This document shows positions 4,510-18,862 of a stretch of DNA of 64,000 bases, piece after piece. The stretch's first letter is position 1; the number at the start of each line of letters is the position of its first letter. The position numbers and the translations under genes are program-made. Below the pieces are notes generated by a model. The model made no database searches. It was not told where the DNA came from and worked only from the letters and a program-made list of their open reading frames with translations. This DNA comes from a virus (taxonomy: Duplodnaviria; Caudoviricetes), in the IMG/VR virus record IMGVR_UViG_3300020046_010243, positions 1 to 64,000 of that record. One strand, 5' to 3'.

Positions 4510-4868
4510 CGCTCCTCCTCGGGAAGCAGACTGACGAGGAACGCATGCTCGTCGATGGCCGCTTGTTGGGTCTGCGGACCGAAGACCGCCTTGGTATAGA
4601 AGAGCGTCACGCCCGTAAGCTTGCGGGATTCGGACTGAATCGCCTTGCTCCATTTGGTATAGGGCGTCCCCAAGCAGTTGGGGCGACCGCTTGCCTGCCT
4701 CACCGGACACCCATCGCAGAAGTAGTTCCGACCTTTCCACCAGTCGGGATTGAAAAACTTCCTGCACAGCGGGCAGTTATCGGTCCCGCGGTCGACTTCC
4801 TTCCCGACCACGATGCGCTCCCACTTCGTGATGCTGCCTCGGAGCGCCTTGAGCGTTGCTTTGTTCAT
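4506..4868 (-). CDS. hypothetical protein with Cys motifs (CPLC, CDGCP, C)
   Basis: GGAGG RBS; start MNKATL. Confidence 0.7.
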   Translation of the reverse strand: MNKATLKALRGSITKWERIVVGKEVDRGTDNCPLCRKFFNPDWWKGRNYFCDGCPVRQASGRPNCLGTPYTKWSKAIQSESRKLTGVTLFYTKAVFGPQTQQAAIDEHAFLVSLLPEEER

Positions 4869-5263
4869 GGGTTCACCTCCATCCAGTGCATGAAGAGCAG
4901 CGCCAGCACGCGCGCCTGCTCGCATTTGCGCCGATCTGGGTCGAACTCATACTCCTCGTCATAGTCGAACCAGTAGGCGGGTCGCCAGCGAGGATCGTAG
5001 CTCGGCTGGAACTCCTGATTGAACTGCATGTGCGAATCGAGGCTACGCTGCTCGAATCCACGTCGCACCGCGCCATCGATATCGAAATAGGAAGCTCCGA
5101 ACGCTTCGGCCTGACGCGCCCGCCATGCTTCGGTGAGCGCATCGCAGCAACCATAGACCGAAAGCTCGCGCGCACCATAGTAAAGGCTCGCGCCGTCGCT
5201 GATGAGTTCGCCTTCGGCCGCCGGGAGCAACTGCGCCGCCTCGAGCCAGATGGAAGTCTTCAT
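4865..5263 (-). CDS. hypothetical protein
   Basis: coupled overlaps with neighbours. Confidence 0.65.
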   Translation of the reverse strand: MKTSIWLEAAQLLPAAEGELISDGASLYYGARELSVYGCCDALTEAWRARQAEAFGASYFDIDGAVRRGFEQRSLDSHMQFNQEFQPSYDPRWRPAYWFDYDEEYEFDPDRRKCEQARVLALLFMHWMEVNP

Positions 5264-5595
5264 GCGCCCCTCCCATCCCGCAGCGACCGACCTTCGCCCT
5301 CTGCGCTGACCGGGCGCCGCGAGCGCTCCTCCGCGCGCAACTGCGCCTCCTTCTTGATTTCGATACCGCTGACCTTCTTCTTGTAGGTCGCGATGAGCTT
5401 CCCCCGGGTCGCATCGATGACTTCGACCGTGCGCCCGATTTTGGTATCGCGTCGGCAGATGACTACCGCAGCGTCATGGCAGTTCTCCAGCCACCGGTAG
5501 TAACTACCAGGCATCCCCACCTGCTTGTGCGGATCGAAGAGTCGATATGGCCGCAGGGTCTCCCGGTCCTTCTTGATTTCGGTTCTCGGCTTCAT
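5260..5595 (-). CDS. hypothetical basic protein
   Basis: coupled overlaps. Confidence 0.65.
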   Translation of the reverse strand: MKPRTEIKKDRETLRPYRLFDPHKQVGMPGSYYRWLENCHDAAVVICRRDTKIGRTVEVIDATRGKLIATYKKKVSGIEIKKEAQLRAEERSRRPVSAEGEGRSLRDGRGA

Positions 5596-5864
5596 TTTCC
5601 TAACATCCTTTCTCTGATTTTCTGGTGCAGCGACTGTGCCGCACCGATGTGCGAATGCGCCTGTTGCTTGACGTCATCCGCATGCTTGAAATCCTGTGCC
5701 CGCTTGCTCGCGCGCGCGACCAGCAATGCATCCTGAATGCTTTTCTGCTCACCTTGGATGTAGTAGCGAATCGCGCGCTGCATCAAGCCCAACTCCCCCG
5801 CGGTAAGATCGAGTGCGACCGTGGGGAATGTGACCGCCTCAGCGGCCGGTGGGTTCGATTCCAT
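5592..5864 (-). CDS. hypothetical helical protein
   Basis: AAGGAG RBS; coupled overlap. Confidence 0.65.
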   Translation of the reverse strand: MESNPPAAEAVTFPTVALDLTAGELGLMQRAIRYYIQGEQKSIQDALLVARASKRAQDFKHADDVKQQAHSHIGAAQSLHQKIRERMLGK

Positions 5865-6123
5865 ACAACTCCTTCTCGCTCAATGGCGCGATGACCCGCA
5901 CCGGTTCCGCATGCATCGGGACCGCCTCATGCAAGCGGCAGTCGGCGAGCGCTTCATCGTAGGCGCGGTATGCGTTGGCGAGGTCTTCCCTCGCCTTCTC
6001 GACCGCTCCCTTGCTGAAACTCAGCGACAGAGCGCAGCGTTGCAAGTGCATGTAGCGCAGCGTCTCCATCAACTCGGCCAGATGATGGCGCAGGAACAGG
6101 ACCGCCTTCACCCTGGCGCTCAT
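5839..6123 (-). CDS. hypothetical protein
   Basis: GGAGG RBS; ORF track. Confidence 0.6.
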   Translation of the reverse strand: MSARVKAVLFLRHHLAELMETLRYMHLQRCALSLSFSKGAVEKAREDLANAYRAYDEALADCRLHEAVPMHAEPVRVIAPLSEKELYGIEPTGR

Positions 6124-6341
6124 GCCTCGTCCTCCTTCGCCAGAGCCGTCCGCGCCATGCAGGGCGCGCAGGAGTAGATGCCGACCGAGGGATCGCAGTC
6201 GCAGGTCAGCGGCCCATGCTGCTCGACCACATACTCCTGATAGAGCCGCGACAGCGCAGCGACCAGTTCGATATTGCGAGCTTGCAGGGCGCTTATTTCC
6301 TTGCGCGTCTTCGGGCCCATACCCCGTATGACCGTTCTCAT
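6120..6341 (-). CDS. hypothetical protein (CDCDP..CAPC)
   Basis: coupled overlaps; Cys cluster. Confidence 0.6.
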   Translation of the reverse strand: MRTVIRGMGPKTRKEISALQARNIELVAALSRLYQEYVVEQHGPLTCDCDPSVGIYSCAPCMARTALAKEDEA

Positions 6342-6478
6342 TTCACCGCCTCCGCGAAGAGTCCCGGGACGACTCCGGTCACCACCAACAGCAAGATGAC
6401 CAGCACGGTGAAGACCACCGCCCGGTCGCCGATCAGATCAGCATTGATCCGCTGCCACCAACTCTCGTCATGCTTCAT
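6338..6478 (-). CDS. 46-aa single-TM protein, absent from the ORF track
   Basis: manual translation MKHDESWWQRINADLIGDRAVVFTVLVILLLVVTGVVPGLFAEAVK; AGAAAGGAA RBS. Confidence 0.65.
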   Translation of the reverse strand: MKHDESWWQRINADLIGDRAVVFTVLVILLLVVTGVVPGLFAEAVK

Positions 6479-6746
6479 GCTTGTTCCTTTCTGGGTTGAG
6501 TAGTGCGAACGATCCCCGCAGAAATATCGCGGAGAGCGTCAGGTCGCTGCGGCTCAACCGGTTCAGAAATCCTTTCCGGCTGAGCCCAGCGTCGAACAGC
6601 ATCGCATCGACCTCCTGCGAGACGACCCCGACTGCATGCGCGATATCTTCCTCGCTGAAGTAGGGCTCCCCTCTCATTAGGTCGAGGTCGACCAGCACAT
6701 ACGCGACCCGCGACGCTAAGTTCTTGAACTCGACATCGATCATCAT
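6468..6746 (-). CDS. hypothetical protein (start MMIDVE)
   Basis: 3' part of ORF 6468..6911. Confidence 0.55.
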   Translation of the reverse strand: MMIDVEFKNLASRVAYVLVDLDLMRGEPYFSEEDIAHAVGVVSQEVDAMLFDAGLSRKGFLNRLSRSDLTLSAIFLRGSFALLNPERNKHEA

Positions 6747-6747
6747 G

Positions 6748-6942
6748 TCACGCAGCAAGCTTGATCCGACCGCACTTGCAGCACCGTAGCACGGGGCTCT
6801 CCGGCCGAATCTTGAGGTATGCGGGATGCTGCTCGTACTGCTCGTGCCCGCATGCTTGCTGCACTGCGTCGATGTCGCGCCGTAAGATGTTCTGCGCTTT
6901 CGTAATCGCATCGACGACCTCCAGCATTTCGATTGCGTTCAT
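6748..6942 (-). CDS. hypothetical protein with CGH...CCKCG
   Basis: AAAGGAG RBS. Confidence 0.6.
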   Translation of the reverse strand: MNAIEMLEVVDAITKAQNILRRDIDAVQQACGHEQYEQHPAYLKIRPESPVLRCCKCGRIKLAA

Positions 6943-6979
6943 CGGAACCACTCCTTTTGCTGAGTCCTGCCTTCAACGC

Positions 6980-7009
6980 GCAGGAGAGAGGAGCCGAAGC
7001 CCCTCTCCT
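6980..7009 (-). repeat. intergenic hairpin, family 2 copy 2 (C-UUCG-G loop in mRNA sense)
   Basis: + strand GCAGGAGAGAGGAGCCGAAGCCCCTCTCCT. Confidence 0.75.
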
Positions 7010-7019
7010 ATGCGTGCTG

Positions 7020-7313
7020 CTACTCGAGCAACCCATGATTCTTGATGCACTGAATCACATCATCGGGCAACTTCCCCGCCGACTCCTTCTCGACGAGGAA
7101 GAAGCACGACTCCTCGTCGTTCGCGAAGGTCCCCATCGGCCTGTCGAGCATCGGCCTGTCGATCGTCAACTCCTCGACCGACGAGCCGCATGGCACGATC
7201 GCGCTGTGCGCATTCGGATGCGCGACGACCACGAGATAGTGGTCGGGCACGTTCTCCAGAGCAGCACGCAGTGCGCTGACCGTCATGCTCTTCCCTGCCT
7301 TCTTGAAATCCAT
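7020..7313 (-). CDS. hypothetical protein (start MDFKKA)
   Basis: AGGAGAGAG RBS. Confidence 0.65.
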   Translation of the reverse strand: MDFKKAGKSMTVSALRAALENVPDHYLVVVAHPNAHSAIVPCGSSVEELTIDRPMLDRPMGTFANDEESCFFLVEKESAGKLPDDVIQCIKNHGLLE

Positions 7314-7329
7314 TGCTCTCTCTCCTCTC

Positions 7330-7731
7330 TCAGAACTTCGCCCGCACGCTGATGCTGCGCTCGAACGTCTCGGTGCGGGTGCCGTCGGGGTAGACCGCAT
7401 AGAGCTTCGTGCCCATGCGGCCCTTCGCATCGTTGAAGACCGGCGAGCGACTGAGGAAGATGCAGACATTCCCGCTCTCGCGGTGCTGCCGCAACTTGTC
7501 CCAGACTCTCGCCCCTTGCGCGCGCAGATCGGCGAGCACTTTCGCCTGCTGCGGCGTGATGCGGTCGAGCGCCGCATAGTAGCGCGCGTTCTGCGACTCG
7601 CGCCTCGCTGCCCTGCGCTCCTGCTGCGCGCGCTGCTGCGCCTTCAGCGCGTCGGGCGTGGTGTTGAGACTCTGGGCGACGATCGCCCAAAGCTCATTGA
7701 CGAAATCCTCTTCGCTTCGCTCTGTAGTCAT
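7330..7731 (-). CDS. hypothetical protein (start MTTERS)
   Basis: GAGGAGG RBS. Confidence 0.7.
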   Translation of the reverse strand: MTTERSEEDFVNELWAIVAQSLNTTPDALKAQQRAQQERRAARRESQNARYYAALDRITPQQAKVLADLRAQGARVWDKLRQHRESGNVCIFLSRSPVFNDAKGRMGTKLYAVYPDGTRTETFERSISVRAKF

Positions 7732-7741
7732 CGCTTCCTCC

Positions 7742-8119
7742 TCAGATGTAGCGCGACAGCGGGCCCATCGGGTCCTCGACATCGAACCGATGCAGCCGAC
7801 CATAGGCCGCATCGAACTGTTCGATCGTCATCCCGATGCGCTCCTGCCATTCGAGCACCGCGTAGTTGCAGCAGTCGGGCTCGGCGCCCGACTCGGCGAC
7901 CTTGCGATCGTTGATGTAGAACCGGGAGTAACCCAACGCACCCTGGCGGAGCACGAACCGGCTGCCGTTGTAGACCACCGCGCGCTCCTGCCATGAGTAC
8001 GGGTCGTGCGAGCAGCCCTCGCTCCCCTCCCGCAGCACCAACGTGCGGTGAAAGACCGGGAGACCTTCCATGCAAAGCCGCGGCGTGCGCGGTTGCTTTC
8101 CTACTTGTTTCGCTTCCAT
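7742..8119 (-). CDS. hypothetical protein
   Basis: AGAAAGGAA RBS. Confidence 0.7.
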   Translation of the reverse strand: MEAKQVGKQPRTPRLCMEGLPVFHRTLVLREGSEGCSHDPYSWQERAVVYNGSRFVLRQGALGYSRFYINDRKVAESGAEPDCCNYAVLEWQERIGMTIEQFDAAYGRLHRFDVEDPMGPLSRYI

Positions 8120-8130
8120 GATTTTCCTTT

Positions 8131-8361
8131 CTATCGGATCAGTTTAAGAGCGCGCAACTTCGCGCGAAGCTCGACCCAGTCCGCTTGGCTCTTGCTGCCG
8201 ATGAGTGCGGTCGGGATCCCGCCGGCGAACCCGGCGCAGTAGAGCGAGTAGCGGCGGCTGCGCATCTTCTCCACCGCCTCGATGACCGTCTCGACCATCA
8301 CGCCTTTGCAGCGCAGGCATGAGACGTCCTTCACTACTGGGAATTGCTTGCGATCAATCAT
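8131..8361 (-). CDS. hypothetical protein with CLRC..C
   Basis: AGAAAGGAAGGAA RBS; preceded by a degenerate leader element. Confidence 0.7.
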   Translation of the reverse strand: MIDRKQFPVVKDVSCLRCKGVMVETVIEAVEKMRSRRYSLYCAGFAGGIPTALIGSKSQADWVELRAKLRALKLIR

Positions 8362-8382
8362 GCTGTTCCTTCCTTTCTAGAA

Positions 8383-8431
8383 CCGCCCACCCAATGCGGG
8401 CGGGTCAGGGCTCATCGCTGAACCCTGACCC
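8383..8431 (-). promoter_or_regulatory. double-hairpin leader element (degenerate copy)
   Basis: CCGCCC/GGGCGG and GGGTCAGGG/CCCTGACCC stems next to the CTAGAAAGGAA RBS. Confidence 0.6.
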
Positions 8432-8451
8432 ACTGCACTGCTACGACCTCT

Positions 8452-10134
8452 CTATTGATAGACCGAGATCACGCTACCGAGACCCGCGGGCTCATGCGCC
8501 TGCAGCCATTTCGGGCGATCGGCGATGATGTCGACCCAGAGAATCTGGAGGTGCGCGAAATCCTCGGGATCCCGCACATCGCCTTCAAGGTCGGTCAGAT
8601 AGATGACCCCTGCAACTTCCTCGCCCGCCTGCTCGAGTTCGAGCGCGTAGCGCAGCACCGGATGGAATGAAGTCCCGCCGCCGCCCTTCGCATCCTCGAG
8701 GCTCACCTGCTCCCCGGGGAGAAACTCGCGCGACCCGCGGATGCGAGAGTCGCAATACACCACATGCATCGACTTCATGCCGAAGTCATCGAGGATGCCC
8801 TGAGCGGCACGCTGCATCAGCGCAAGCGCTACATCGCTGATGCTGCCCGAGGTATCGACTCCCAGAACCATCACCTTCACCCCCGGGGCGCAGCGAGAAG
8901 GCAGATACGTCTCGCTGTAGCGGCGGTTCGGGCGCGACCAGGAATCTTCCATCGCGCATGTGGTATGCGCAAAGTCATCGACGCACTCCTTGAAGCTCCG
9001 CGGCGACTCTTGCGTCGCTCCGATCGCGCGCGCCATGCTCGCTTCGATATCGCCGCCCGCCGCCAACTGCGCGGTCATGACTGCCTGCGACCATTCGCGC
9101 TCGAGTTCAGCGAGTTGCGACTCATCCATACCGCCCTTACCGGGCGCTACTTCTGCTTCGCTGCTCCCGCCTGCATCGTCTTCGTCTTCGTCTTCGTCAC
9201 CGGGCTCGTCAGAATCGCCCGATGCATCGCCGTCGCCATCTTCTTCATCGCCGTCGCTGCTCTCTTCGTCGCCTTCGCCATCTTCGCCATCGCCTTCTTC
9301 GGCATCAGTCGACTCATTCGACGACTCCTTGCGGTCTTGCTCTTCGCCGTCCGCATCATCTTCTCCTTCGTCATCGCTGCTCTGCTCTTCGCTGGGCTCC
9401 TCTCCCGAGGCGCCTGCATCGAGGCAATCACCAGCAGCACCGGTAGCGCTTTCGCCGAGGTCGCCTTCATCGCCGTCCTCGTCTCCGTCGCTGCCTGGGG
9501 CACTCGCTCCTTCGCCCTCATCCTCGCCCGCCTCCGACTCTTGCGGCGGCTGCGACTGCTGCTCGTCCTGCGAGGGTTGCGGCTGCGACTGCTGCTCCTG
9601 CTTCTTTTTCTCTTCCTGCTGCCGCTGCTTCTCCTTCTGCTCCGCTTCCTTCTTCAAGCGCTCGGCATGCACGATCGTGTAGACCTGCTCCGCCGCCATC
9701 CCCACGAAACGCGGATCGGCGAGACCTTCGCGCTGTAGGTCGGGATCGCTCGCCCAAAGCTTGGCGAACTCGGGATCCTTCAGCAGCGCCAGATTGGTCA
9801 CATGATCGATAGCGACGTTCCAATCCTTCGGGTCGCGATCCTTGCGGCGGAAGGGATGACCGAGAGCGCAATGCGTCACTTCATGCGCGTGCACGAAGAG
9901 AATATATGCCCACGACTCGGTCACCACGAATGCGGGGTTATATCCCAGCACCACCGCATCGGTATACATCGTCGGGTGACGCCAATCCTGGCGCACCTTC
10001 AAGCGCTCAGCGAGAGCGCCGTAGAACGGATAGTAAATCTTGATATGCAGGAGCGCCTTCTGCACGATCGCAGCGGCCTCCCGCTCGACGCGCGCCTTAT
10101 CGGCCGCGCTGAGCTTCGTCGGTCTTGGTTGCAT
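8452..10134 (-). CDS. DUF2201-like metallopeptidase + acidic linker + vWA domain protein
   Basis: HAHEVTH (HExxH); long D/E/G/S linker; VDTSGSIS MIDAS, GGGGTSF, IYLTDLEG. Confidence 0.85.
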   Translation of the reverse strand: MQPRPTKLSAADKARVEREAAAIVQKALLHIKIYYPFYGALAERLKVRQDWRHPTMYTDAVVLGYNPAFVVTESWAYILFVHAHEVTHCALGHPFRRKDRDPKDWNVAIDHVTNLALLKDPEFAKLWASDPDLQREGLADPRFVGMAAEQVYTIVHAERLKKEAEQKEKQRQQEEKKKQEQQSQPQPSQDEQQSQPPQESEAGEDEGEGASAPGSDGDEDGDEGDLGESATGAAGDCLDAGASGEEPSEEQSSDDEGEDDADGEEQDRKESSNESTDAEEGDGEDGEGDEESSDGDEEDGDGDASGDSDEPGDEDEDEDDAGGSSEAEVAPGKGGMDESQLAELEREWSQAVMTAQLAAGGDIEASMARAIGATQESPRSFKECVDDFAHTTCAMEDSWSRPNRRYSETYLPSRCAPGVKVMVLGVDTSGSISDVALALMQRAAQGILDDFGMKSMHVVYCDSRIRGSREFLPGEQVSLEDAKGGGGTSFHPVLRYALELEQAGEEVAGVIYLTDLEGDVRDPEDFAHLQILWVDIIADRPKWLQAHEPAGLGSVISVYQ

Positions 10135-10151
10135 GATGGTCCTTTCTAGAT

Positions 10152-10205
10152 CGCTTGCGGAATGCAAGCGCACAAGCGCTCAGCGAAACCGCCGCTGAGC
10201 GCTTG
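10152..10205 (-). promoter_or_regulatory. double-hairpin leader element
   Basis: CGCTTGC-GGAAT-GCAAGCG plus a 13-bp second stem. Confidence 0.85.
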
Positions 10206-10220
10206 AACACTGCACTTCGA

Positions 10221-11201
10221 CTACTGCATCGTATCGGGCGGAGTGACATCCCAGGAAGCCCGCAGCGGCTTCAATGCTGCGAGGATGCTATCCGCCTTTT
10301 TCTTCGCATCGCTGCGCACCTTCTTGTCATCCTTCACCGCCCCCGGGTCGAGAGCGAGAAGGTCACGCGCGATGCTATTGCCGAGCGCCGCGATGTGCGG
10401 GTCCTGCACCACCGCATTGAGTTGCGGCAGCGATGCGACGAGCTTGCGCAGCGGCTCGAACGTCGTGCTGCGAACCTGCGCATCGGGATCGGCGAGCTTG
10501 CCTTGAAGCTCACCGACCGCCTCTTGCACCCGCTCGAACACCTCCTGCACCGCCCCCTTCAATCTGCTGCGCATTTCACCCTCGTACGCCTTCTTGATCT
10601 CGACCGCCTCATCCGCGCTGAGCTTCACGCGGAAGTCATCGGAAGAAGGAAGCGGCTCGACCAGCACGGTGAAGCGAAACCGGGAGCGCATGACATCCAT
10701 GCTCGGGTAATCGCTTTCGCGCCACATCTTGCCCAGCCTCTCCTTCTGCGCGAGGATCGCATCGGGATACTCAGCGAGAAACTCCTCGACCGCGATATAG
10801 AAGTCGCGCTCATACGCGCTCATCTTCTTCTTGTACTCGAAGAACTGAGTCACATTGAGCAGCCGCGCTCCCGAATCGCCCCAAGGCAGCGTCAGGCTCT
10901 TGTGAAACTTGCGCGCCTCGTTCGTCACCGCATTGACCTTCTTCAAGCGGTCGCGGGTCATGAACCGCTTGGTGAAGGTGCCGATCTCGCCCCGCGCCTC
11001 ATTCGCGCTGCGCAGCGCTGCGACCGACTCCTCATCCGCCCCGGTCCCATACCAACGCGAGATCGTGCTGCGAACCAGCATCGCGCGCTCATGCAGCGAA
11101 TGCGCGGTGTCTTGCTCTTGCTGCTCAGCCGGGGCGGGGATATCGATATCCCCAAGCGTCTTCCCGCTGAACGTCTTCGCTTTCGGCAGTGCTCTTGCCA
11201 T
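10221..11201 (-). CDS. DUF3150-like helical protein associated with AAA/vWA
   Basis: HKSLTLPWGDSGARLL, F..EYPD, YPS...MRSRFRF; lies between AAA and vWA genes. Confidence 0.6.
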   Translation of the reverse strand: MARALPKAKTFSGKTLGDIDIPAPAEQQEQDTAHSLHERAMLVRSTISRWYGTGADEESVAALRSANEARGEIGTFTKRFMTRDRLKKVNAVTNEARKFHKSLTLPWGDSGARLLNVTQFFEYKKKMSAYERDFYIAVEEFLAEYPDAILAQKERLGKMWRESDYPSMDVMRSRFRFTVLVEPLPSSDDFRVKLSADEAVEIKKAYEGEMRSRLKGAVQEVFERVQEAVGELQGKLADPDAQVRSTTFEPLRKLVASLPQLNAVVQDPHIAALGNSIARDLLALDPGAVKDDKKVRSDAKKKADSILAALKPLRASWDVTPPDTMQ

Positions 11202-11215
11202 GATCGCTTTCCTTT

Positions 11216-12220
11216 CTAGATGTAGTCAGCGTGAAGAGCGCAGAACGTCACGAACGCCTTGGTCTTACGCAGGGCGGGATGGGCATTCTCCACTTTCTTC
11301 GCGAACACGAACGCGAACTCCTTGCCGATGCGGCGCAGATAGGTAAACGCCGCCTCGATTTTGTTGCGGTCGACGCTCATTGCAAGCGCCGTCGCAAGCG
11401 CGTAGCTGACCGAGGGGTCGCCGCTCACCTGCGCATTCTCCGGGTCGAGGAAAATCTGGTCGAGAGTCACCAGGCTCGCCATGGTGCGCAAGAACCCAAC
11501 GAACTCATGACCATATGCCTTCCCGACTGCACCCGCGAACCACTCACCGACCAGCGTCGGGTCTTCCTTGAGCAACCCGGCCGCATCGAGGCTCTTCAAC
11601 ATATCGCTGCTGAGGTGCCACGAGCGCGGCGAAGCGAACGCCGCTTCCTTGCTGCGCGGATCGAAGCTCATCAGAGCACTCGGCCGGTAGCGAAGATACG
11701 CGATGGTGCGGTAATCGATATCTGCTGCATCGGCCCAGACCAGCCAATCGTCGAGGTTGATCTCCAGATCGACGTGCCAGAACCGATTATTCAAATGCGT
11801 CGGCATCGGCGACGTGCCTGCTGCATCGCCCAACCGATTCGAGGCAGAGCAGATCCACCAGCCCGGGGGCAGGCGATACTCTCCGATGCGCCGCTCTAGC
11901 GTCAGCATTGCCGCGACGTTCTTGACCTCGACCCGCGCCTGCGCCAACTCGTCGATGAAGAGGATGCCCTTCGAGTTCTGGTCATGCGGAAGCTCAGCCG
12001 GCGGGGCCCAATGGGTCATCCCATTGCGCTCCTTCGGCGTGCCGCGCATATCGACCGCATCCATCATCGTCAGCCTCCAGTCGAGCACCGGGAGCCCCGC
12101 GCGGGCGGCGTACTGGTGCACCGCACTACTCTTGCCTCCGCCTGGGGCGCCCCAAATCATCAGCGGGCGGTTGATGGCGTGCGCGGTCTGGAGCGTCGTG
12201 CTCAGGTGTTGCATTCTCAT
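11216..12220 (-). CDS. MoxR/dynein-related AAA+ ATPase (AAA_5)
   Basis: WGAPGGGKS Walker A, LFIDEL Walker B, ASN sensor, NNRF, SPRSW. Confidence 0.9.
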   Translation of the reverse strand: MRMQHLSTTLQTAHAINRPLMIWGAPGGGKSSAVHQYAARAGLPVLDWRLTMMDAVDMRGTPKERNGMTHWAPPAELPHDQNSKGILFIDELAQARVEVKNVAAMLTLERRIGEYRLPPGWWICSASNRLGDAAGTSPMPTHLNNRFWHVDLEINLDDWLVWADAADIDYRTIAYLRYRPSALMSFDPRSKEAAFASPRSWHLSSDMLKSLDAAGLLKEDPTLVGEWFAGAVGKAYGHEFVGFLRTMASLVTLDQIFLDPENAQVSGDPSVSYALATALAMSVDRNKIEAAFTYLRRIGKEFAFVFAKKVENAHPALRKTKAFVTFCALHADYI

Positions 12221-12256
12221 GATGTTCCTTTCTAGGTTGACCGCGATCCTCTGCGG

Positions 12257-12307
12257 CGCTTGCGAGGGCAAGCGTGCCTGCGCGCTGCGATACTCAGCAG
12301 CGCGCAG
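12257..12307 (-). promoter_or_regulatory. double-hairpin leader element
   Basis: CGCTTGC-GAGG-GCAAGCG plus an 11-bp second stem. Confidence 0.85.
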
Positions 12308-12324
12308 AACCAATGCCCTCTTAT

Positions 12325-12702
12325 CTATGCTGCGAGACGAGCGCCGCGCTTGAATGAATCAACCGGTGCGCGAAACATCTTGCCGTTCTTTTCGAACAGC
12401 ACGCTCTTGTAGCCGCTCTTCATGCCGACGACCTTGACGATCGATCCCGCATAGTGCACGTTCTGGCCGAGCATCTTTTCGTCGAGACCATAGACGCCGC
12501 ACATATCCTTGTAGCGCTGCGCCTCGGGCGACTCCCCGCTGAGCGATGCTTCCACCTTGCCGGTGAAGGCGGTCTCGGTGAACCGCACGCTGCCGAGCTT
12601 CATCGCGAACCCGTGCTTGGCTGCGACCTGCGCGAGTGCTGCATCGATTTCGATGCGAATCGATTGCAGCGTCGGGCGGTCGAACTTCTTGAGGCTAATC
12701 AT
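12325..12702 (-). CDS. hypothetical protein (start MISLKK)
   Basis: AGAAAGGAA RBS and leader element. Confidence 0.75.
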   Translation of the reverse strand: MISLKKFDRPTLQSIRIEIDAALAQVAAKHGFAMKLGSVRFTETAFTGKVEASLSGESPEAQRYKDMCGVYGLDEKMLGQNVHYAGSIVKVVGMKSGYKSVLFEKNGKMFRAPVDSFKRGARLAA

Positions 12703-12721
12703 GGTCATTCCTTTCTGGTTG

Positions 12722-12771
12722 CGCTTGCGGGAGTGCAAGCGAGGCAGCGCACCCTTGCCGGATGCGCTGCC
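12722..12771 (-). promoter_or_regulatory. double-hairpin leader element
   Basis: CGCTTGC-GGGAGT-GCAAGCG plus GGCAGCGCA/TGCGCTGCC. Confidence 0.85.
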
Positions 12772-12785
12772 GCAATGCTCACTCC

Positions 12786-13007
12786 CTACTGCATGCTGCC
12801 AAGCTCGCGGTTCGCGCTGATGATCGGGGAGCGCGCGAGTCGCTCTCGCTTCTCTTCGCTGCTGAGGTAGCGCGCGAGCGCGCCTGCCGCTGCGCGCCCG
12901 AATGCATCCGCATAGCAGCAGGTGCCCCGCTGCTCATGCTTTGCGGCTTCGCTGAGCAGCGCGCGCACCTCGGCGAGCAGCGCTTCGTTCTGCGCCCGGG
13001 TGCGCAT
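12786..13007 (-). CDS. hypothetical protein (start MRTRAQ)
   Basis: start overlaps upstream stop; GGTGGAAG RBS-like. Confidence 0.55.
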   Translation of the reverse strand: MRTRAQNEALLAEVRALLSEAAKHEQRGTCCYADAFGRAAAGALARYLSSEEKRERLARSPIISANRELGSMQ

Positions 13008-13213
13008 CAGACTTCCACCGCGCGGTAGCTGAAAGTTGCGGTGCTGTAGGGGCTCACGTTCGCTTGAAGCGTCGCGGCATGCTTTTGCGCTTCCTCGAGC
13101 GAGGCGAACTCCATCTCGACGCGATCCGTCAGATTCATCGCGACGCATTTCAGAAAAGCGCTACGCGAACCAGTCACGCCGCCCGAGACCGAACAGAGAA
13201 TCTTGAAGGCCAT
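13007..13213 (-). CDS. hypothetical protein (start MAFKIL)
   Basis: CTAGAAAGGAA RBS and leader element. Confidence 0.7.
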   Translation of the reverse strand: MAFKILCSVSGGVTGSRSAFLKCVAMNLTDRVEMEFASLEEAQKHAATLQANVSPYSTATFSYRAVEV

Positions 13214-13233
13214 AATGTATTCCTTTCTAGAAA

Positions 13234-13287
13234 CGCTTGCACCAATGCAAGCGATGCAGCGCACCGCGATCCTCTGCGATGCGCTGC
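13234..13287 (-). promoter_or_regulatory. double-hairpin leader element
   Basis: CGCTTGCA-CCAA-TGCAAGCG plus GCAGCGCA/TGCGCTGC. Confidence 0.85.
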
Positions 13288-13305
13288 CGCGCGGCACTGC
13301 TGAGC

Positions 13306-13623
13306 TTACGGCTGCACGAAGAGCGTGATGTAAGCGCCGCCGACGCCCGGCTGCAAATGATTCGGCAGCGCGTATGCGTAGCTGAAGTTCGCGTTCATCA
13401 TATATGCGCTGGTCTCTGCAACATCCTTCTTGGTCAGCGCGGCCTGCATGTAGCGCTTGATGTATGCGCAAGCTTCGCTATAGGTCATGCTCGGCGTCCA
13501 GAGAATGTGCCGAGAATTTTGCGGGCGCGCCTCAAGCGAGAACGCCCACGAGCCGCGACCGCGCGGCGTGCGCCCGTGGGAGCGCTCGAACTCGATCGTT
13601 TCAATGTCGATGGCATGCTTCAT
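13306..13623 (-). CDS. hypothetical protein (SHGRTPRGRGSWAF motif)
   Basis: CTAGAAAGGAA RBS and leader element. Confidence 0.7.
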   Translation of the reverse strand: MKHAIDIETIEFERSHGRTPRGRGSWAFSLEARPQNSRHILWTPSMTYSEACAYIKRYMQAALTKKDVAETSAYMMNANFSYAYALPNHLQPGVGGAYITLFVQP

Positions 13624-13640
13624 GATGTTCCTTTCTAGAT

Positions 13641-13694
13641 CGCTTGCGGGAATGCAAGCGTGCAAGCGCTGCGCGATGATCTGCGCAGCGCTTG
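13641..13694 (-). promoter_or_regulatory. double-hairpin leader element
   Basis: CGCTTGC-GGGAAT-GCAAGCG plus a 12-bp second stem. Confidence 0.85.
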
Positions 13695-13722
13695 ACCGAT
13701 GCACTACCTACTGCTCAGCGCT

Positions 13723-13908
13723 TTACCGCACGCGCTGCCATCCGCCCTGCGAGTAGATGCGGACGTCCTTGTGCTTGTCGAGCGACGGCTCCTTCTTCAC
13801 CGCAGCGACCAGCGCCGCATCGGGCGATTCGGCCTTGACGATCGCTTCCACATCGTGCTCGCCCTTGCTCGTCGCGACGCCGACCACCTTGAAGGATTTC
13901 TTTGCCAT
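13723..13908 (-). CDS. 61-aa hypothetical protein, paralog B
   Basis: clear paralog of 14015..14200. Confidence 0.85.
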   Translation of the reverse strand: MAKKSFKVVGVATSKGEHDVEAIVKAESPDAALVAAVKKEPSLDKHKDVRIYSQGGWQRVR

Positions 13909-13948
13909 GATTCAGTTTCCTTTCAGACTGTGAACCGGTAAGCCCGGT

Positions 13949-14003
13949 CGCTTGCGGGAATGCAAGCGTCGCAGCGCTCAGCATGCTACTCGCTGAGCGC
14001 TGC
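13949..14003 (-). promoter_or_regulatory. double-hairpin leader element
   Basis: CGCTTGC-GGGAAT-GCAAGCG plus a 12-bp second stem. Confidence 0.85.
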
Positions 14004-14014
14004 TCCAATGCACT

Positions 14015-14200
14015 CTACCGAACGCGCTGCCATCCCCCGCGCTCGTAGAAGCGCACGTCGGGATGCTTATCGAAGCTCGGCTCCTTCTTGATCGCTTCCG
14101 CGCGCGCGGCTTCAACGCTCGCCGCTTTGATGATGACCTCCACGTCACGCTCACCAACCTTCGACGCGAATGCCACGACCTTGAATGTGCGCTTTGCCAT
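14015..14200 (-). CDS. 61-aa hypothetical protein, paralog A; first gene of the leftward operon
   Basis: shares MAK..FKVV...KKEPS.DKH.DVR.Y..GGWQRVR with paralog B. Confidence 0.85.
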   Translation of the reverse strand: MAKRTFKVVAFASKVGERDVEVIIKAASVEAARAEAIKKEPSFDKHPDVRFYERGGWQRVR

Positions 14201-14221
14201 GATCTGATTCCTTTCTGGTTT

Positions 14222-14274
14222 CGATTGCGGGAGTGCAATCGGGCCAGCGCACCGCGATGTTCTGCGATGCGCTG
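14222..14274 (-). promoter_or_regulatory. double-hairpin leader element with compensatory base change
   Basis: CGATTGC-GGGAGT-GCAATCG, versus CGCTTGC/GCAAGCG in the other copies. Confidence 0.85.
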
Positions 14275-15086
14275 AACCAATGCATTCTTTGCTGCCTGGT
14301 ACAGAGGTATGAGGAATTGAAGATGCACAGAAGAGAAGTCAGTCCTGCTGCGTTTCGACCCGACCATTTCTGCAGTGCACGGCATGCGGATGCGACTAGG
14401 CGAGACTTCCGGGTTCGCGATTGCGTCTGGCGGTTAGCTGATACTACGCGCGCTATCGTTGAGGGAGCGCACTCCGCGTCATCAACCCTTCCCTGCTTCG
14501 TCGGGCGCAGCGCGTCGAGCTTGCGCGCGCTGCTCATCATCGTGCATTGGATGCTTCATGGATTGCGGGTGATTCGCTTTAACCCAAACCGCGCGCGAAA
14601 TTGCATCGTGCGCAGGCGCTGCTCTGGGGCTCCGGTCTTAGCGCTTTCATCTTCTTTTTATTTGGGGCTGCTCGGGTGCTCTGCGCGGTCGCGATGATCT
14701 GCGATGCGCAGCAATGAGCAATTAGCGCGCAGTTGCGATGATCTGCAAATGCGCGGCGCTTTTCGGCGGGAGTGTCTAGCTGGCGCTGGGAAGGGGCTCT
14801 CACCTCACGTGCACTCTGACCAGACGTTCAAAACGGGGGCGGGTAAATCGAATCATCAGACCCCGGGCGCTGGCTACACGGCCTCTCGCAGCGCTGCGCG
14901 ATGATCTGCGCTCTTCGCTGCGGCTTCGGGCTCTTCGGATCTGCTGAGATCCTCGCGGGGGCTTGACTTTCGCGTTTGAGCTTTGCTGCTTGGCTCTGGT
15001 CGCGCCCTTGCGCTCGCGACCCGCTACTCCTGACCCGCATTCGCCCTGCTACTGCTGCTGCTCTCTGCTACCTCTGCTACGCCCCC

Positions 15087-15115
15087 ATGCTATCAGAGGA
15101 AAGGGGGATAGTCAA
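15087..15115 (-). promoter_or_regulatory. sigma70-type leftward (early) promoter
   Basis: minus strand TTGACT-17 nt-TAGCAT with extended -10 TGn. Confidence 0.75.
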
Positions 15116-15126
15116 TACCGTATTTT

Positions 15127-15202
15127 CCCTTAAAAATCAAGGGCTTGCGGGGCTTTTTGGTTAACCCTAGATCCAAAAAACCCTTAAAAATCAATGGCTT
15201 AC
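15127..15202. repeat. 22-bp direct repeat pair CCCTTAAAAATCAA(G/T)GGCTT(G/A)C
   Basis: copies at 15127-15148 and 15181-15202 in an AT-rich patch. Confidence 0.8.
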
Positions 15203-15266
15203 CGGAAATGGGGACCGGTTTACGACGCACCGAACGCATGCATGTGCATGAGTCGCCCGCCGCATG

Positions 15267-16859
15267 CTACGTCCCGACCAACTCCGCCGCCGCGTCGGTC
15301 GACATCGCAAACTTCTCAGCATCGACTTTATAGCACCCGAGTTTCGCGTCGTAGCGCACGATGACTTCCGTCGGTTCCTCGAGCACGCGGACGAGCGCAA
15401 GCGCCTCCCGCGCATTCGTAGGCACCTGACTCCCGGTCAACCCACGACGCGCGAACCACCGCCGCGCCAGGTGAAGCGCACCGCCCTTGTACTCAACGCA
15501 GAGGAACTCCTTCGCTACGAAAGCGCGTCCCTGTGCATCCTCGAGTTCGTAGGTCAGGATCAGCAGGTTGGTGCCGGGGAAACGCCGCGACGGGATCACG
15601 AAGCCGTCGATGTGCTGCACTTCGGCCTCGAACGAGGATCCGTTTCGCATCGGATCTTCCGACGATGGGTCGAAAAGCTCCGGTCGGTCGCGCGGTTTCA
15701 CCTTCTTCCGGTTGCCTTCCGTCGCGGCCCGGGCCGCGGCGACCGCTTCGGGCGTCCGCATGTCGTAGGTTTCGGAGACCGCACCGACCCCACCCAGGCG
15801 CTCCAGGTTGCCTACGAAGTCGAGGAGGAGGCAGTTTTTCTTTTCGCCCGACTCCGCGACTCCCAACCGCATGCCGCGGCCGAGGATCTGTTGCCAGAGC
15901 ACATCGCTTTGCGTCGGCCGCATGGAAATAATGCAGTCGGTGCCAGGGGCGTCGAAACCAGTAGTCAGCACTCCGACGTTCACCAACGCGCGAACATCGC
16001 CCGCGCGGAAGGAAGCAATCGCATGAGCGCGTGCGTCATCGTCAGTCTTCCCGGTCACGACGACATTGCTGATGCCCTGCGCTGTCAACTCCGCAGCGAT
16101 CTCGTGCGCATGGTCGACTCCCGCGGCAAACACCAACCAAGACCGTCGCTTCCGTGCGTAGCGGCATGCTTTCGCGACCGCCGCGGGAAGAGGCAGCGTC
16201 GCCTGCACGGCCGCTGCTGCTTGTTCTGCGATGTAGTCGCCCCCGCGCGACCCGACGCCCGACAAATCCGCCTGCATTTCCGCGACAACCCCGGTCAGCG
16301 GGAGCAGGAACCCTCGCTTGATGAGCAGGCGCACATCGATCTCATGCGCGATGTGCGAGAACCATGCATCGTCGCCATCGATTAGCGATCCGGATCCATC
16401 GAGGCGCTTCGGAGTTGCGGTCAGCCCGGTGCGCTGCGCTCCCATGAAGTGCGCGAAGACCTGCGCATACATGGCTCCGCTCTTGCGGGGGCATAGATGC
16501 GCTTCGTCGATGAATAGATATCTGCGCGGCTTGCGGAAGAGAGGCAGCGAGCGCGAGACCGACTGCACCGAACCGAAGACCACCCGAGCGTTCGGGTTCT
16601 TCTCCTTGAGCTTCGCGACGAAGAAACTTTGCTCCATGTTCGGGGCGACCCGGCGCAGCGCTTTGCTGTTCTGCTCGAGTAGCTCAGCGACATGGGTCAA
16701 GACCAACGCGTCTGCATTGAGGCGTTGCAGCACGCCCGCAAGCACTAATGACTTGCCTGAGCCGGTCGGGAGTACGCATAGGGGATGCTGCTTCGCTGCG
16801 AGTGCATCGGTGATGCGCTCAACAGACTCCGACTGATAGTCACGGAGGTCTACTCGCAC
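15267..16859 (-). CDS. superfamily 2 helicase (ResIII/YejH-like)
   Basis: LRDYQ, PTGSGKS, DEAH, GLTATP, TGFDAP, QILGRGMR. Confidence 0.95.
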   Translation of the reverse strand: MRVDLRDYQSESVERITDALAAKQHPLCVLPTGSGKSLVLAGVLQRLNADALVLTHVAELLEQNSKALRRVAPNMEQSFFVAKLKEKNPNARVVFGSVQSVSRSLPLFRKPRRYLFIDEAHLCPRKSGAMYAQVFAHFMGAQRTGLTATPKRLDGSGSLIDGDDAWFSHIAHEIDVRLLIKRGFLLPLTGVVAEMQADLSGVGSRGGDYIAEQAAAAVQATLPLPAAVAKACRYARKRRSWLVFAAGVDHAHEIAAELTAQGISNVVVTGKTDDDARAHAIASFRAGDVRALVNVGVLTTGFDAPGTDCIISMRPTQSDVLWQQILGRGMRLGVAESGEKKNCLLLDFVGNLERLGGVGAVSETYDMRTPEAVAAARAATEGNRKKVKPRDRPELFDPSSEDPMRNGSSFEAEVQHIDGFVIPSRRFPGTNLLILTYELEDAQGRAFVAKEFLCVEYKGGALHLARRWFARRGLTGSQVPTNAREALALVRVLEEPTEVIVRYDAKLGCYKVDAEKFAMSTDAAAELVGT

Positions 16860-16973
16860 TGGTCAGTTCCTTTCTCGGTCGCGGTGCTGCGGGATGGTCA
16901 GGCTTGCGCTGTTCGCGCTCATTAGATTATGCTCCAACTGCCCGCTGCTTTGCGAGCACAGAAAGGATGAAAG

Positions 16974-17342
16974 ATGAACGGCAACCAATCTCCCGAGACC
17001 TCACTTGCTCCGCCTGAACAAGGCAGCGCTCAGCCTCGTGCTTTCCTCGTGCAGGATAACCCGACGCTCGACTTCTCGCCGCTGCGCGAGTACGCCGCCT
17101 GGCCGCCTGAGGTTGTGTTCGATCCGGGGCAGGTTACGCTGCACCCGCAGCATGCACTGAAACACGCACGAACCAAACTGCAAGGCATGCAGGAGGATGA
17201 CTTCCTGCTGCTGAACGGGGATCCCGTGATGATCGGGATCTGTCTCGCGGTAGCGGCTGAGCTTATCGGCCGCGTGAAGCTACTCCGGTGGGACCGCCGC
17301 GAGAAGATTTACCTTCCCATCACGCTCGACTTCGATCAATAA
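16974..17342 (+). CDS. hypothetical protein (DFLLLNGDP..LLRWDR motif)
   Basis: GAAAGGA RBS; first gene of the rightward operon. Confidence 0.75.
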   Translation: MNGNQSPETSLAPPEQGSAQPRAFLVQDNPTLDFSPLREYAAWPPEVVFDPGQVTLHPQHALKHARTKLQGMQEDDFLLLNGDPVMIGICLAVAAELIGRVKLLRWDRREKIYLPITLDFDQ

Positions 17343-17358
17343 CCCGAAAGGAAATGAC

Positions 17359-18183
17359 ATGGCCGAAAAGTCGGCAGCAGAATCCGCGGCTCCCGAGAAG
17401 GAAGCCGCACCCGCGCAGGAAGCGAAGCAAGAGAAGCCGAAGACGCTCCTCAGCACCATCGTCAGCGGCAAGGCGCACATGCCGCCGCGCATCTTGCTTT
17501 ATGGGGTCCACGGCATCGGCAAGTCGACCTTCGCGGCGGAAGCCCCGTCGCCCATCTTCATCCCGACCGAAGACGGCGCAAACGAGATCGACGTCCCGAA
17601 GTTCCCAGTGGTGAAGGATCGCGGCGAGGTCATGGCGATTCTGCGCGAGCTTTACTCGCAGCCGCATGACTACCAAACCCTGGTGCTCGACTCGGTCGAC
17701 TGGTTCGAGGACTTCATCCAGGCCGAACTGCGCGCGGAGAAGACCGAGAAGGAGTTGGGCTATGGTCGGGAGTCGCTCTTCGCGGAGGCGATGCTGAGCG
17801 ATGTGCTCGGCGCATTCTCTATGCTGCGGAAGAAGCGCAGCATGACTGTCGTAGTCATCGCGCATAGCGAGATCAAGCGTTTCGACTCGCCGATGACCGA
17901 ACCCTACGACCGGTACCAGCCGAAGCTCACGCCGCGCCTCTCTTCGCTGCTCCAGGAATGGGCGGATGTGGTCGCGTTCGCTACCTACGATGTTGCCGTG
18001 AAAAAGGAGGAGGTCGGCTTCAACCGCGAAGTGCGTCGCGGCATCAGCAGCGGGGATCGCGTCATCTACACCGAGGAACGCCCCGCCTTCTACGCGAAGA
18101 ATCGCTACAAGCTCCCGCCCGAAATGCCGCTGAACTGGGCGAAGTTCGCGTCGAAGATTCCCTACTACAGCGCGGAGAAGTAG
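17359..18183 (+). CDS. AAA_24 / Sak4-like recombination ATPase
   Basis: LYGVHGIGKSTFAA, PTEDG, TLVLDSVDW, IAH, EWADVV, AKNRY. Confidence 0.9.
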   Translation: MAEKSAAESAAPEKEAAPAQEAKQEKPKTLLSTIVSGKAHMPPRILLYGVHGIGKSTFAAEAPSPIFIPTEDGANEIDVPKFPVVKDRGEVMAILRELYSQPHDYQTLVLDSVDWFEDFIQAELRAEKTEKELGYGRESLFAEAMLSDVLGAFSMLRKKRSMTVVVIAHSEIKRFDSPMTEPYDRYQPKLTPRLSSLLQEWADVVAFATYDVAVKKEEVGFNREVRRGISSGDRVIYTEERPAFYAKNRYKLPPEMPLNWAKFASKIPYYSAEK

Positions 18184-18222
18184 CCGCGCTTTTTCTGACC
18201 CACCGAAAGGAGTCACCGCATC

Positions 18223-18753
18223 ATGGCAAAAGTTGACTGGGACGAAACCGAGTACGAGGAAGGTAGGTCCGGCTTCGAGGCGTTGCCCAAGGGCCGCTAC
18301 TCGGCGCGCATCACCGATATCGAAAAGCGCGACACGAAGAGCAAGACCGGCTATATGTTCTGCCCCGAGTTCACGCTCGACGGCGAGCAGTTCAAGAACC
18401 GCAAGGTCTGGGCGCAGTTGAATGTCTCGAACCCGTCGGAGATCGCGCAGCGCATCGGTCGCGAGCAATGGAACTCGCTCATCGTCGCCTGCGGGTTCGA
18501 GATCGGCACCGTGAAGGATACCGACAAGCTCGTCGGCAAGCGCCTGATCGTGCTGGTCGACATCGAAAAGGATCAGGATGGGTCGCCGCGCAACAAGGTG
18601 ACCGGCTTCTTCCCGCATGATGGTAGCGCACCGGCCCCAGGCACCTCGGGCGGTACGCGGACGGGGCGCACGAGCGGCAGCGCTCCCGCCGCGAGCAACA
18701 CACCGAAGCCCGCCGGCAAGGCCGAGATCGACGAAGACGACATCCCTTTCTAG
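18223..18753 (+). CDS. DUF669-like single-stranded DNA-binding protein
   Basis: FEALPKGRY..., flexible G/S/T linker, acidic DEDDIPF tail. Confidence 0.85.
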   Translation: MAKVDWDETEYEEGRSGFEALPKGRYSARITDIEKRDTKSKTGYMFCPEFTLDGEQFKNRKVWAQLNVSNPSEIAQRIGREQWNSLIVACGFEIGTVKDTDKLVGKRLIVLVDIEKDQDGSPRNKVTGFFPHDGSAPAPGTSGGTRTGRTSGSAPAASNTPKPAGKAEIDEDDIPF

Positions 18754-18761: not shown

Positions 18762-18830
18762 CTCTACCACCCCGAGTCGGACTCCCTCTTTTCTGCTGAG
18801 GAGTACGACCCGGGGGATGGTTGCGTAGAG
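18762..18830 (+). other. long imperfect intergenic hairpin
   Basis: nested pairing CTCTAC/GTAGAG, CCCC/GGGG, GTCG/CGAC, ACTCC/GGAGT. Confidence 0.6.
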
Positions 18831-18862
18831 GATGCTACCAACGAGCAATGGGCGAGAGACCG

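Follow-up and report, generated by a model that had tools for sequence, protein, structure and literature searches.

A repeated two-hairpin module between early genes of an uncultured tailed phage: a selected RNA fold, gene exchange and a possible role in message processing

The stretch analysed here, referred to below as the window, comprises the first 64 kb (64,000 nucleotides) of IMG/VR record IMGVR_UViG_3300020046_010243, a 76.9-kb sequence of an uncultured phage that is estimated to be 94% complete. It carries the genes of a tailed phage (terminase, portal, a capsid-protease fusion, tape measure, DNA polymerase I, primase-helicase and a 7-deazaguanine cluster) together with a gene for a RecE-like exonuclease at 18821-19918, and from ~18.7 kb down to position 1 the genes are oriented on the minus strand. 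Within this leftward run lies an early operon, in which one sigma-70-type promoter and a long untranslated leader precede the genes named J to A here (Table 1). Eight modules of ~90 bases, each built around a pair of hairpins, are set into this operon directly ahead of genes, and they are the subject of this work.

Results

Architecture of the module

All eight modules lie on the minus (mRNA) strand, and every copy ends at an AUG. Read in the mRNA sense, each begins with the stop codon of the upstream frame, often inside CAGUAG, and continues through a conserved single-stranded linker (consensus G(U/A)GCAUUG), a first hairpin (HP2), a gap of 0-3 nt, a second hairpin (HP1) and a ribosome-binding site (RBS) box to the AUG. 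HP2 is long, perfect and GC-rich, with a stem of 12-15 bp whose sequence varies freely, and it starts 11-20 nt past the stop codon. HP1 is short (7-8 pairs), with a pyrimidine-rich loop and a conserved stem sequence, CGCUUGC/GCAAGCG; it stands 9-10 nt upstream of the Shine-Dalgarno (SD) sequence, and the RBS box, (C)UAGAAAGGAA, precedes the AUG by 3-8 nt. Copies 12257 and 13949 (copies are named here by the position of HP1) contain an extra third small hairpin ahead of the RBS. The eight copies had been listed in a first-pass annotation of this DNA, and all are present where it placed them; its figures for the HP2 stem (7-13 bp) and for the gap between the hairpins (1 to 4 nt) have to be replaced by those given above.

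The exact HP1 pattern, CGCTTGC-N3-8-GCAAGCG, is found in six copies (10152, 12257, 12722, 13234, 13641 and 13949) against 0.02 expected from shuffles, and there is no further occurrence across the 76.9-kb genome. The two remaining copies read as the annotation had described them. In copy 14222 both sides of the stem have changed and pairing is retained (CGAUUGC ACUCCC GCAAUCG), while copy 8383 (CCGCCCGC AUUGG GUGGGCGG) retains the fold with a different sequence. Folding-energy z-scores of the modules range from -2.2 to -5.5 against dinucleotide shuffles. The hairpins do not accompany every gene start in the operon: at the junction between D and C the RBS box stands alone.

The motif UGCAUU occurs twice in each module, once in the single-stranded linker and once in the HP1 apex, and the UGCA cores of the two can pair with each other. 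In the predicted fold of module 8, a competing helix joins the linker to the top of HP1, and for copies 8383, 10152 and 13234 the minimum-energy predicted fold uses the linker-apex helix, not HP1. Both segments are strongly conserved, and from these predicted folds the doubled motif may be either a switch between two states or a protein site present in duplicate.

Selection on the fold

Relatives were collected as a graded set in protein searches with the ATPase encoded by gene D, and four related genomes were read as DNA. By ATPase identity the relatives are L007, from IMG/VR (72%), L167/L087 (72%), L008/L088 (57%) and L168 (55%), plus shorter pieces. The DNA comparison leaves out the closest protein relatives (86%, which is P0002, and 73%), including P0003 and P0005-P0014, which are mostly Logan assemblies.

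Fourteen module copies from three phages (the window, L007 and L167) were aligned with MAFFT, with the two-helix structure supplied. Paired cells amount to 95.8%; shuffles reach 79.0 +/- 1.5%, and sliding the 3' partners brings the figure down to 21-46%. Both sides have changed in 12 of the 19 pairs, a figure as high being reached in 0 of 500 shuffles, and all five pairing measures lie above all 500 shuffles. Since the copies share ancestry, the shuffle figures are not probabilities; the slide control is clean. This comparison of aligned copies shows the module fold to be under selection.

The cells that depart from Watson-Crick pairing also indicate which strand folds. Eighteen are G.U or U.G, at eight pair positions, and 2 are A.C, both in rows placed wrongly by MAFFT. 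A DNA palindrome decaying neutrally would yield the two kinds in equal measure; because G.U outnumbers A.C, the folding strand is, on this count, the sense strand, either as mRNA or, less simply, as single-stranded DNA of that strand. The proposal of the first-pass annotation that the copies form a cis RNA module with its structure under selection is therefore upheld, by the covariation and by wobble pairs confined to the sense strand.

A covariance model of the module (R1) gives the eight window copies 51-84 bits on the minus strand and 13-27 bits in antisense, and a search of the window and the remaining genome found no match besides these eight. Three modules each were found by R1 in L007 and in L167, and in L168, whose copy is outside the training set, an HP1-like hairpin scores 21 bits. 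Loci surrounding more distant homologues of the ATPase, 1.19 Mb in all, gave no match. When IMG/VR was searched with an RBS+HP1 pattern, no match was returned; a looser pattern (HP2 end plus HP1) gave 94 stretches, and R1, run on 80 listed of these 94 loci (0.76 Mb, HP1-like pattern), accepted none except the contig of L007 itself. The single-protein scan for the ATPase gave no match and the helicase scan gave one truncated contig. The module family is real and strand-specific and, as far as seen, confined to one small clade, in which it keeps to the early cassette region. Built as the first-pass annotation had suggested, the covariance model returned strand-specific matches, with covariation on the 14 copies, and the Rfam search was without a match.

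Gene exchange at the modules

The frame of the operon is conserved among the relatives: helicase, promoter, leader, ATPase, DUF3150 gene, VWA gene and then a 125-aa gene. The number of genes between the leader and the ATPase is six in the window, one in L167 and none in L007; L007 has one extra gene past the VWA gene, and in L090 the 125-aa gene is placed ahead of the ATPase. When genes are mapped in the window, L007 and L167, every extra gene is seen to carry a module of its own. Module 6 is the positional counterpart of three-hairpin modules ahead of the ATPase in L007, L167 and L087, and the junction of module 7 has no module in L007 and L167.

L167 and L007 are 81-84% identical as DNA. In L167 a 100-aa gene lies between two modules, L167a and L167b. 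Over its linker, its HP2 and the 5' arm of its HP1 the pre-ATPase module of L007 equals L167a; the switch falls in that arm, and from the 3' arm of HP1 onwards the match is to L167b, including the third hairpin, the RBS and the ATPase. This chimeric module is the footprint of a homologous crossover inside HP1. As the two parent modules flank the extra gene, it also marks the modules as crossover points for gene gain and loss, and a comparison of the contigs shows them to be points at which genes are gained, lost and reordered between relatives by homologous exchange. The idea of a recombination handle for gene cassettes, raised in the first-pass annotation, gains its support from the same chimera of L007 set against L167. 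The phage encodes a RecE-like exonuclease, and enzymes of the Red/RecET type act on homologous stretches some tens of bases in length.

Module 13641 and the post-VWA module of L007 are 85% identical over 80 nt, although they occupy different junctions with unrelated flanking genes and coding DNA is ~70% identical. CAGUAG stands at the 5' edge of a module even where no open reading frame (ORF) ends, as at the leader of L007 and at module 13641, where the stop of gene I (UAA) comes 12 nt before it. The unit therefore brings its own stop codon besides its own RBS.

L167 (CAZEMX010000021.1) and L168 (CAYHEV010000011.1) are phage contigs filed in public metagenome-assembled genomes labelled Nitrososphaerota and Bathyarchaeia. 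Both have bacterial-type promoters and Shine-Dalgarno sites, as well as the operon shared with this phage, and the archaeal labels are probably binning errors.

The equivalent junctions in distant relatives

Hairpins of unrelated sequence occupy comparable places in more distant relatives. Past the VWA gene of L008 there are two stable hairpins (z -2.7) ahead of a private RBS box, CAACACAGGAGA, and the same arrangement recurs ahead of the ATPase (z -4.5). L168 has one GC hairpin past its VWA gene (z -2.6).

In L010, a distant relative with an ATPase/DUF3150/VWA operon, the junction equivalent to module 8 is occupied by a Hammerhead_II ribozyme (46.6 bits, gathering score 37; 14488-14555, mRNA sense), which lies between the VWA stop and the next RBS. 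Its first base immediately follows the stop codon, and 25 nt separate its end from the next AUG. The contig is the same as that of L109, where the hammerhead has the coordinates 5026-5093.

Operon features and searches for further parts

The coordinates of the operon are collected in Table 1. The promoter scan of 7500-15400 returned two sites, the operon promoter and a second site (13934-13907), of chance-level quality, overlapping module 2 at its RBS end; the other seven modules contain no sigma-70 promoter. The site at 15115-15087 is the sole sigma-70-type operon promoter in 7.5-15.4 kb, its position is kept in L007, L167 and L087, and it drives the leftward early operon. No sigma-54 promoter was found by eye inside the modules.

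Table 1. Coordinates of the promoter, leader, modules and genes of the early operon, in the order of transcription (window positions; HP, hairpin; SD, Shine-Dalgarno sequence; bits, score under covariance model R1)
Feature	Position	Strand	HP2	HP1	Bits	Further details
Operon promoter, sigma-70 type	15115..15087	minus				TTGACT, 17 nt, TAGCAT; TG before TAGCAT
Untranslated leader, ~800 nt	14287..15086	minus				first ~470 nt conserved with relatives
Module 1, before J	14198..14286	minus	14244-14275 (12 bp)	14222-14241 (CGAUUGC/GCAAUCG)	79.3	linker AAUGCAUUGG; SD 14209-14214; AUG 14198-14200
Gene J	start 14200	minus				61 aa
Module 2, before I	13906..14013	minus	13971-14003 (13 bp)	13949-13968	73.4	third hairpin ~13931-13947; SD 13918-13923
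Gene I	start 13908	minus				61 aa, paralog of J
Module 3, before H	13621..13704	minus	13663-13694 (12 bp, loop AGAUCAUC)	13641-13660	84.1	RBS CUAGAAAGGAAC
Gene H	start 13623	minus				105 aa
Module 4, before G and F	13211..13301	minus	13256-13287 (12 bp, U.G pair)	13234-13253	74.6	
Gene G	start 13213	minus				68 aa
Gene F	start 13007	minus				73 aa; abuts preceding gene, no module
Module 5, before E	12700..12779	minus	12743-12771 (12 bp, U.G pair)	12722-12741	65.7	
Gene E	start 12702	minus				125 aa
Module 6, before ATPase gene D	12218..12317	minus	12277-12308	12257-12274	71.5	
Third hairpin of module 6	12241-12256	minus				loop AGAGGAUC
Gene D	start 12220	minus				MoxR-like AAA ATPase
D/C junction, module-less	11202..11219	minus				UAG in CUAGAAAGGAA is the stop of D, 12 nt ahead of the AUG of C
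Gene C	start 11201	minus				DUF3150; abuts preceding gene, no module
Module 7, before B	10132..10216	minus	10173-10205 (14 bp)	10152-10170	73.5	
Gene B	start 10134	minus				DUF2201 metallopeptidase and VWA-like
Module 8, between B and A	8359..8443	minus	8400-8433 (13-15 bp)	8383-8403 (divergent, G.U pair)	51.3	RBS CUAGAAAGGAAGG
Gene A	start 8361	minus				76 aa

Several parts known from other systems were sought in the modules. None of the hairpins runs into a U tract, and there is no terminator-like site in any module on either strand. No module contains boxA (lambda or rrn) or the attC core GTTRRRY. In Rfam the whole window gave no match at the gathering score, and in 8000-15400 only chance-level matches (E up to 5) were seen; no tRNA or tmRNA was found. 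The modules match no ribozyme family in Rfam, and any cutting must be the work of a protein enzyme. Among the ~50 ORFs scanned with Pfam or PHROGs, which is not every ORF, there was no integrase or phage RNA polymerase, and an Atlas look-up of the conserved neighbour gene at 7742-8119 gave no RNA-binding protein, RNase or integrase. J (14015-14200) and I (13723-13908), the first two genes after the leader, have no Pfam or PHROG match and are absent from L007 and L167.

The conserved part of the leader (window 14610-15086, minus strand; L007 9100-9580; L167 8707-9190) is 91.6% identical between L007 and L167, compared with 81-84% in the flanking coding DNA. In several of its stems double changes preserve the pairing, as in GGGUCGCG..CGCGACC vs GGGGAGCG..CGCUCCC, and a 70-aa ORF in the window leader has lost its ATG in L007. 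From these comparisons the leader looks like a structured non-coding RNA; it has no Rfam match. Three solo HP2-like stems with the loop AGAUCAUC lie in it at 14690-14703, 14735-14746 and 14897-14910 (minus strand). Their CGC-AGAUCAUC-GCG top is the same as that of HP2 in modules 3, 4 and 1 and of the third hairpin of module 6, and the loop consensus, AGRNNAUC, is present in L007 and L167 too. These solo hairpins may have been left behind by cassettes since lost, or may form a binding site of their own.

Just upstream of the -35 element of the early promoter stand two boxes, (A/C)(C/T)TTGATT(T/C)(T/G)TAAGG, ~60 nt apart (window ~15125-15205, minus strand; L007 8985-9065). The pair is also conserved in L167 and L087, L008 has a similar box (CCTTGATTC), and we regard it as a candidate activator, repressor or UP-type site.

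The RBS box of the modules is part of a wider set. Allowing at most one mismatch, TCCTTTCTAG has 15 matches against 2.1 expected, and an extended RBS box, NAGAAAGGAA, stands ahead of 13 minus-strand genes between 3.9 and 18.8 kb (window 3964-18753). Just eight of the genes with the extended box have a hairpin module, which parallels the split between start-associated sequences (SAS) and extended SAS (ESAS) in cluster K mycobacteriophages. The tetranucleotide CTAG is avoided genome-wide, with 61 occurrences against ~272 expected from base composition; six occur within 5.3 kb in the RBS box CUAGAAAGGAA, at 8377, 10146, 11216, 12232, 13227 and 13635. Two more gaps past the eight modules, 6478-6600 and 6911-7010 (minus strand), contain long hairpins of unrelated sequence (example GGAGAGGGGCUUCGGCUCCUCUCUCC) that precede starts of the AGAAAGGAA type or AAAAGGAG; the covariance model recognised neither.

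Discussion

Selection on the structure of the module and its role in cassette exchange are well supported; its molecular function we infer from what lies at the same junctions elsewhere. Hammerhead ribozymes that flank single genes in prophages have been read as processing sites of long phage transcripts (Perreault et al. 2011, PMC3088659). Since the junctions that carry the hairpin pair in this clade carry other hairpins or a ribozyme in distant relatives, the pair is most simply seen as protein-dependent punctuation, by cleavage and/or by blocking an exonuclease. We therefore regard the modules as intercistronic connectors and judge the chance that they serve in processing or as barriers to decay to be about even. 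Of the functions listed in the first-pass annotation, a processing or stabilisation site is the one favoured here, on the analogy of the hammerhead in a distant relative.

The connectors would then work as follows. One strong host-type promoter and the ~800-nt leader would feed the small accessory genes and then the ATPase/DUF3150/VWA trio, and the hairpin pair would punctuate the polycistronic early mRNA as a processing and/or decay-barrier site, so that the message of every cassette gene would have protected ends and start translation in a standard way. For HP2 the shape alone would matter, as a barrier just outside the terminating ribosome, and HP1 would be recognised through its sequence, by a host RNase or by some other protein. 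A shared sequence kept constant by its RNA function would also make the connectors good crossover sites.

Several points weigh against a processing or decay-barrier role. The hammerhead analogy rests on one lineage, in which the ATPase is 35% identical, and there is no ribozyme in ~30 other loci. The scanned ORFs include no candidate RNA-binding protein or RNase. The hairpins are unlike classical RNase III sites, which have one ~20-bp stem with an internal loop, and the sole conserved single-stranded stretch is 5' of HP2, where cleavage would strip the upstream cistron of a hairpin at its 3' end. Copies within one genome share ancestry, and the shuffle statistics therefore overstate their independence. 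Finally, native hairpins give no clear rise in predicted RBS accessibility over shuffled ones. We rejected RBS insulation for want of any consistent gain in that comparison, and the translational enhancer (or insulator) of the first-pass annotation finds no support in this in-silico test. The linker motif GCAUU fits the preference of RNase E.

A bolder version of the connector reading, which we consider rather unlikely, is that of a promoter-less gene-capture system. Accessory genes would be plugged in through a standard RNA connector by RecE-type exchange, and the connector would supply the stop codon, the punctuation of the message and the ribosome site behind one promoter and a structured leader. 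An HP1-specific endoribonuclease or RNA-binding protein would cut or time every cassette message, following the logic of the Cas6/Csy4 hairpins that insulate synthetic operons. Such a system would be integron-like in function, without an integrase. An identity with integron attC sites is rejected by the missing GTTRRRY in the modules and by the lack of an IntI integrase among the scanned ORFs.

The main rival to the connector reading is that HP1 is a translational operator, through which a protein or RNase acting in trans (of phage or host) switches all early cassette genes together; we see this as a minority possibility, though one to be taken seriously. RegA or gp43 of T4 and the coat protein of MS2 offer comparisons, and in a variant a pseudoknot forms between the RBS, at its GGA, and the pyrimidine-rich loop of HP1. 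The HP1 stem is conserved beyond what the fold needs, being identical in six of the eight copies while HP2 is free to vary, and it is recognisable in L007, L167 and even L168 (ATPase 55% identical), but gene conversion between copies could also explain this conservation. Its position just 5' of the RBS is fixed, and UGCAUU is found a second time in its apex. The loops are mostly AUUCC(C), ACUCCC or CCUC and able to pair with GGA(A) of the RBS; however, the UUGG or AUUGG loops of two copies could not pair with the SD, and with an invariant RBS the covariation of loop and RBS gives no check. As to the factor, the ORFs scanned include no RNA-binding protein, and J and I cannot be it, as L007 and L167 keep their modules without these genes. 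HP1 together with CUAGAAAG was also considered as a possible mimic of a CRISPR repeat (an RNA anti-CRISPR).

An RNA role would be unnecessary if the module were a DNA-level recombination or selfish element, a patch of homology or a single-stranded-DNA hairpin site spreading with the cassettes. The chimeric module, cassette indels bounded by modules, near-identical modules beside unrelated genes, and the stop (CAGUAG) and RBS that each module brings along would all fit, and G.T wobbles are tolerated in single-stranded DNA hairpins too. Homologous recombination, however, needs identity and not pairing, yet pairing is kept while the sequence of HP2 drifts. The unrelated hairpins or ribozyme at the same junctions in distant relatives likewise argue for a need at the RNA level. 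With no integrase or transposase among the scanned ORFs and no attC core in the modules, we take this explanation to be distinctly unlikely. Terminal inverted repeats and a consistent target duplication, on which a miniature inverted-repeat transposable element would be recognised, were not seen, though this was not rigorously tested.

Control of transcription elongation, by pause or termination signals or by nut- or put-like antiterminator RNAs acting on host RNA polymerase, is very unlikely. Each unit does have two adjacent stem-loops, superficially like HK022 put, and a long conserved structured leader behind the promoter could condition polymerase. Against this, the modules have no U tract, terminator-like site or boxA, and the operon has no predicted terminators that would need to be overridden. 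Known nut and put sites are found immediately downstream of promoters in one or two copies, whereas the modules stand in front of individual genes in eight. Membership of the lambda nut/HK022 put group is rejected in the same way, with eight copies over 6 kb, the first of them ~800 nt from the promoter, and no match in Rfam; the put-like antiterminator of the first-pass annotation is accordingly a poor fit. An N4-type hairpin promoter, considered because ATPase homologues occur in N4-like phages, was ruled out, as this is a siphovirus with a tape measure, the scanned ORFs include no phage RNA polymerase and the loops have 4-6 nt, not 3.

It is scarcely credible that a dimeric repressor binds HP1, a 7-bp inverted repeat in the intergenic DNA of one operon, as a palindromic operator in double-stranded DNA, in the manner of the stoperators of cluster A mycobacteriophages, given a spacer that varies between 4, 5 and 6 bp, asymmetries that nearly all keep sense-strand G.U pairing (18 vs 2), a symmetric double change tolerated at 14222, and a long adjacent HP2 that covaries freely.

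Among known systems the modules are closest in logic to the promoter early stem-loop (PeSL) elements of T4-type phages, in which a strong sigma-70 promoter and a terminator stem-loop make each cassette its own transcription unit (PMC2839356, PMC4122927). Like PeSLs, they are repeated stem-loop units between small non-essential early genes, in a plastic region with modular shuffling (Arbiol et al. 2010; Comeau et al. 2014), and the repeats contain the end points of indels and replacements that distinguish related phages, as the L007/L167 chimera and the gene maps show. Unlike PeSLs, they have neither a strong promoter, the genes sharing one upstream promoter, nor a U-tract terminator, the unit consisting of a stop codon, two hairpins and an RBS. 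Membership of the PeSL family fails on these two counts.

Like the SAS/ESAS system of cluster K, this phage has a private extended RBS box at many non-structural starts, about half of them with an upstream inverted repeat of variable spacer. The box here (AGAAAGGAA) is unrelated though analogous: the 13-bp SAS consensus, GGGATAGGAGCCC, stands at no start codon and has one two-mismatch match, inside gene B at 9406. For ESAS, which are 17-bp imperfect inverted repeats, departures in the arms do not support RNA pairing and DNA binding was favoured (Pope et al. 2011, PMC3203893), whereas departures in the modules do support it (95.8% of cells, 12/19 pairs). The comparison with PeSL and SAS made in the first-pass annotation holds as an analogy and fails as membership of either family.

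For the proposed role, the modules resemble two systems in their placement between cistrons. In T7, the early RNase III sites R0.3 to R1.3 are intergenic stem-loops at which a long transcript of host polymerase is cut into gene-length mRNAs with hairpin-protected ends. They share with the modules an intercistronic position in an early polycistronic unit and offer a functional model for the role proposed here, but the modules have two separate perfect hairpins (12-15 and 7 bp) in place of a single irregular ~20-bp stem with an internal loop. The hammerheads of prophages and phages (PMC3088659) are likewise RNA elements between the cistrons of long phage transcripts.

With PeSLs, T7 RNase III sites and SAS/ESAS as precedents, the modules hold no surprise of principle. 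The motif is well defined, supported by covariation and absent from Rfam, and could become a family that marks cassette boundaries in metagenomic phage contigs. The occurrence of the hairpin pair, of unrelated hairpins and of a hammerhead at one junction makes the interchangeability of protein-dependent sites and self-cleaving ribozymes testable. If the connector reading is true, this clade of uncultured phages would have a compact rule for adding and expressing accessory early genes, the class that usually holds functions in host takeover and anti-defence, with no promoter needed for each gene.

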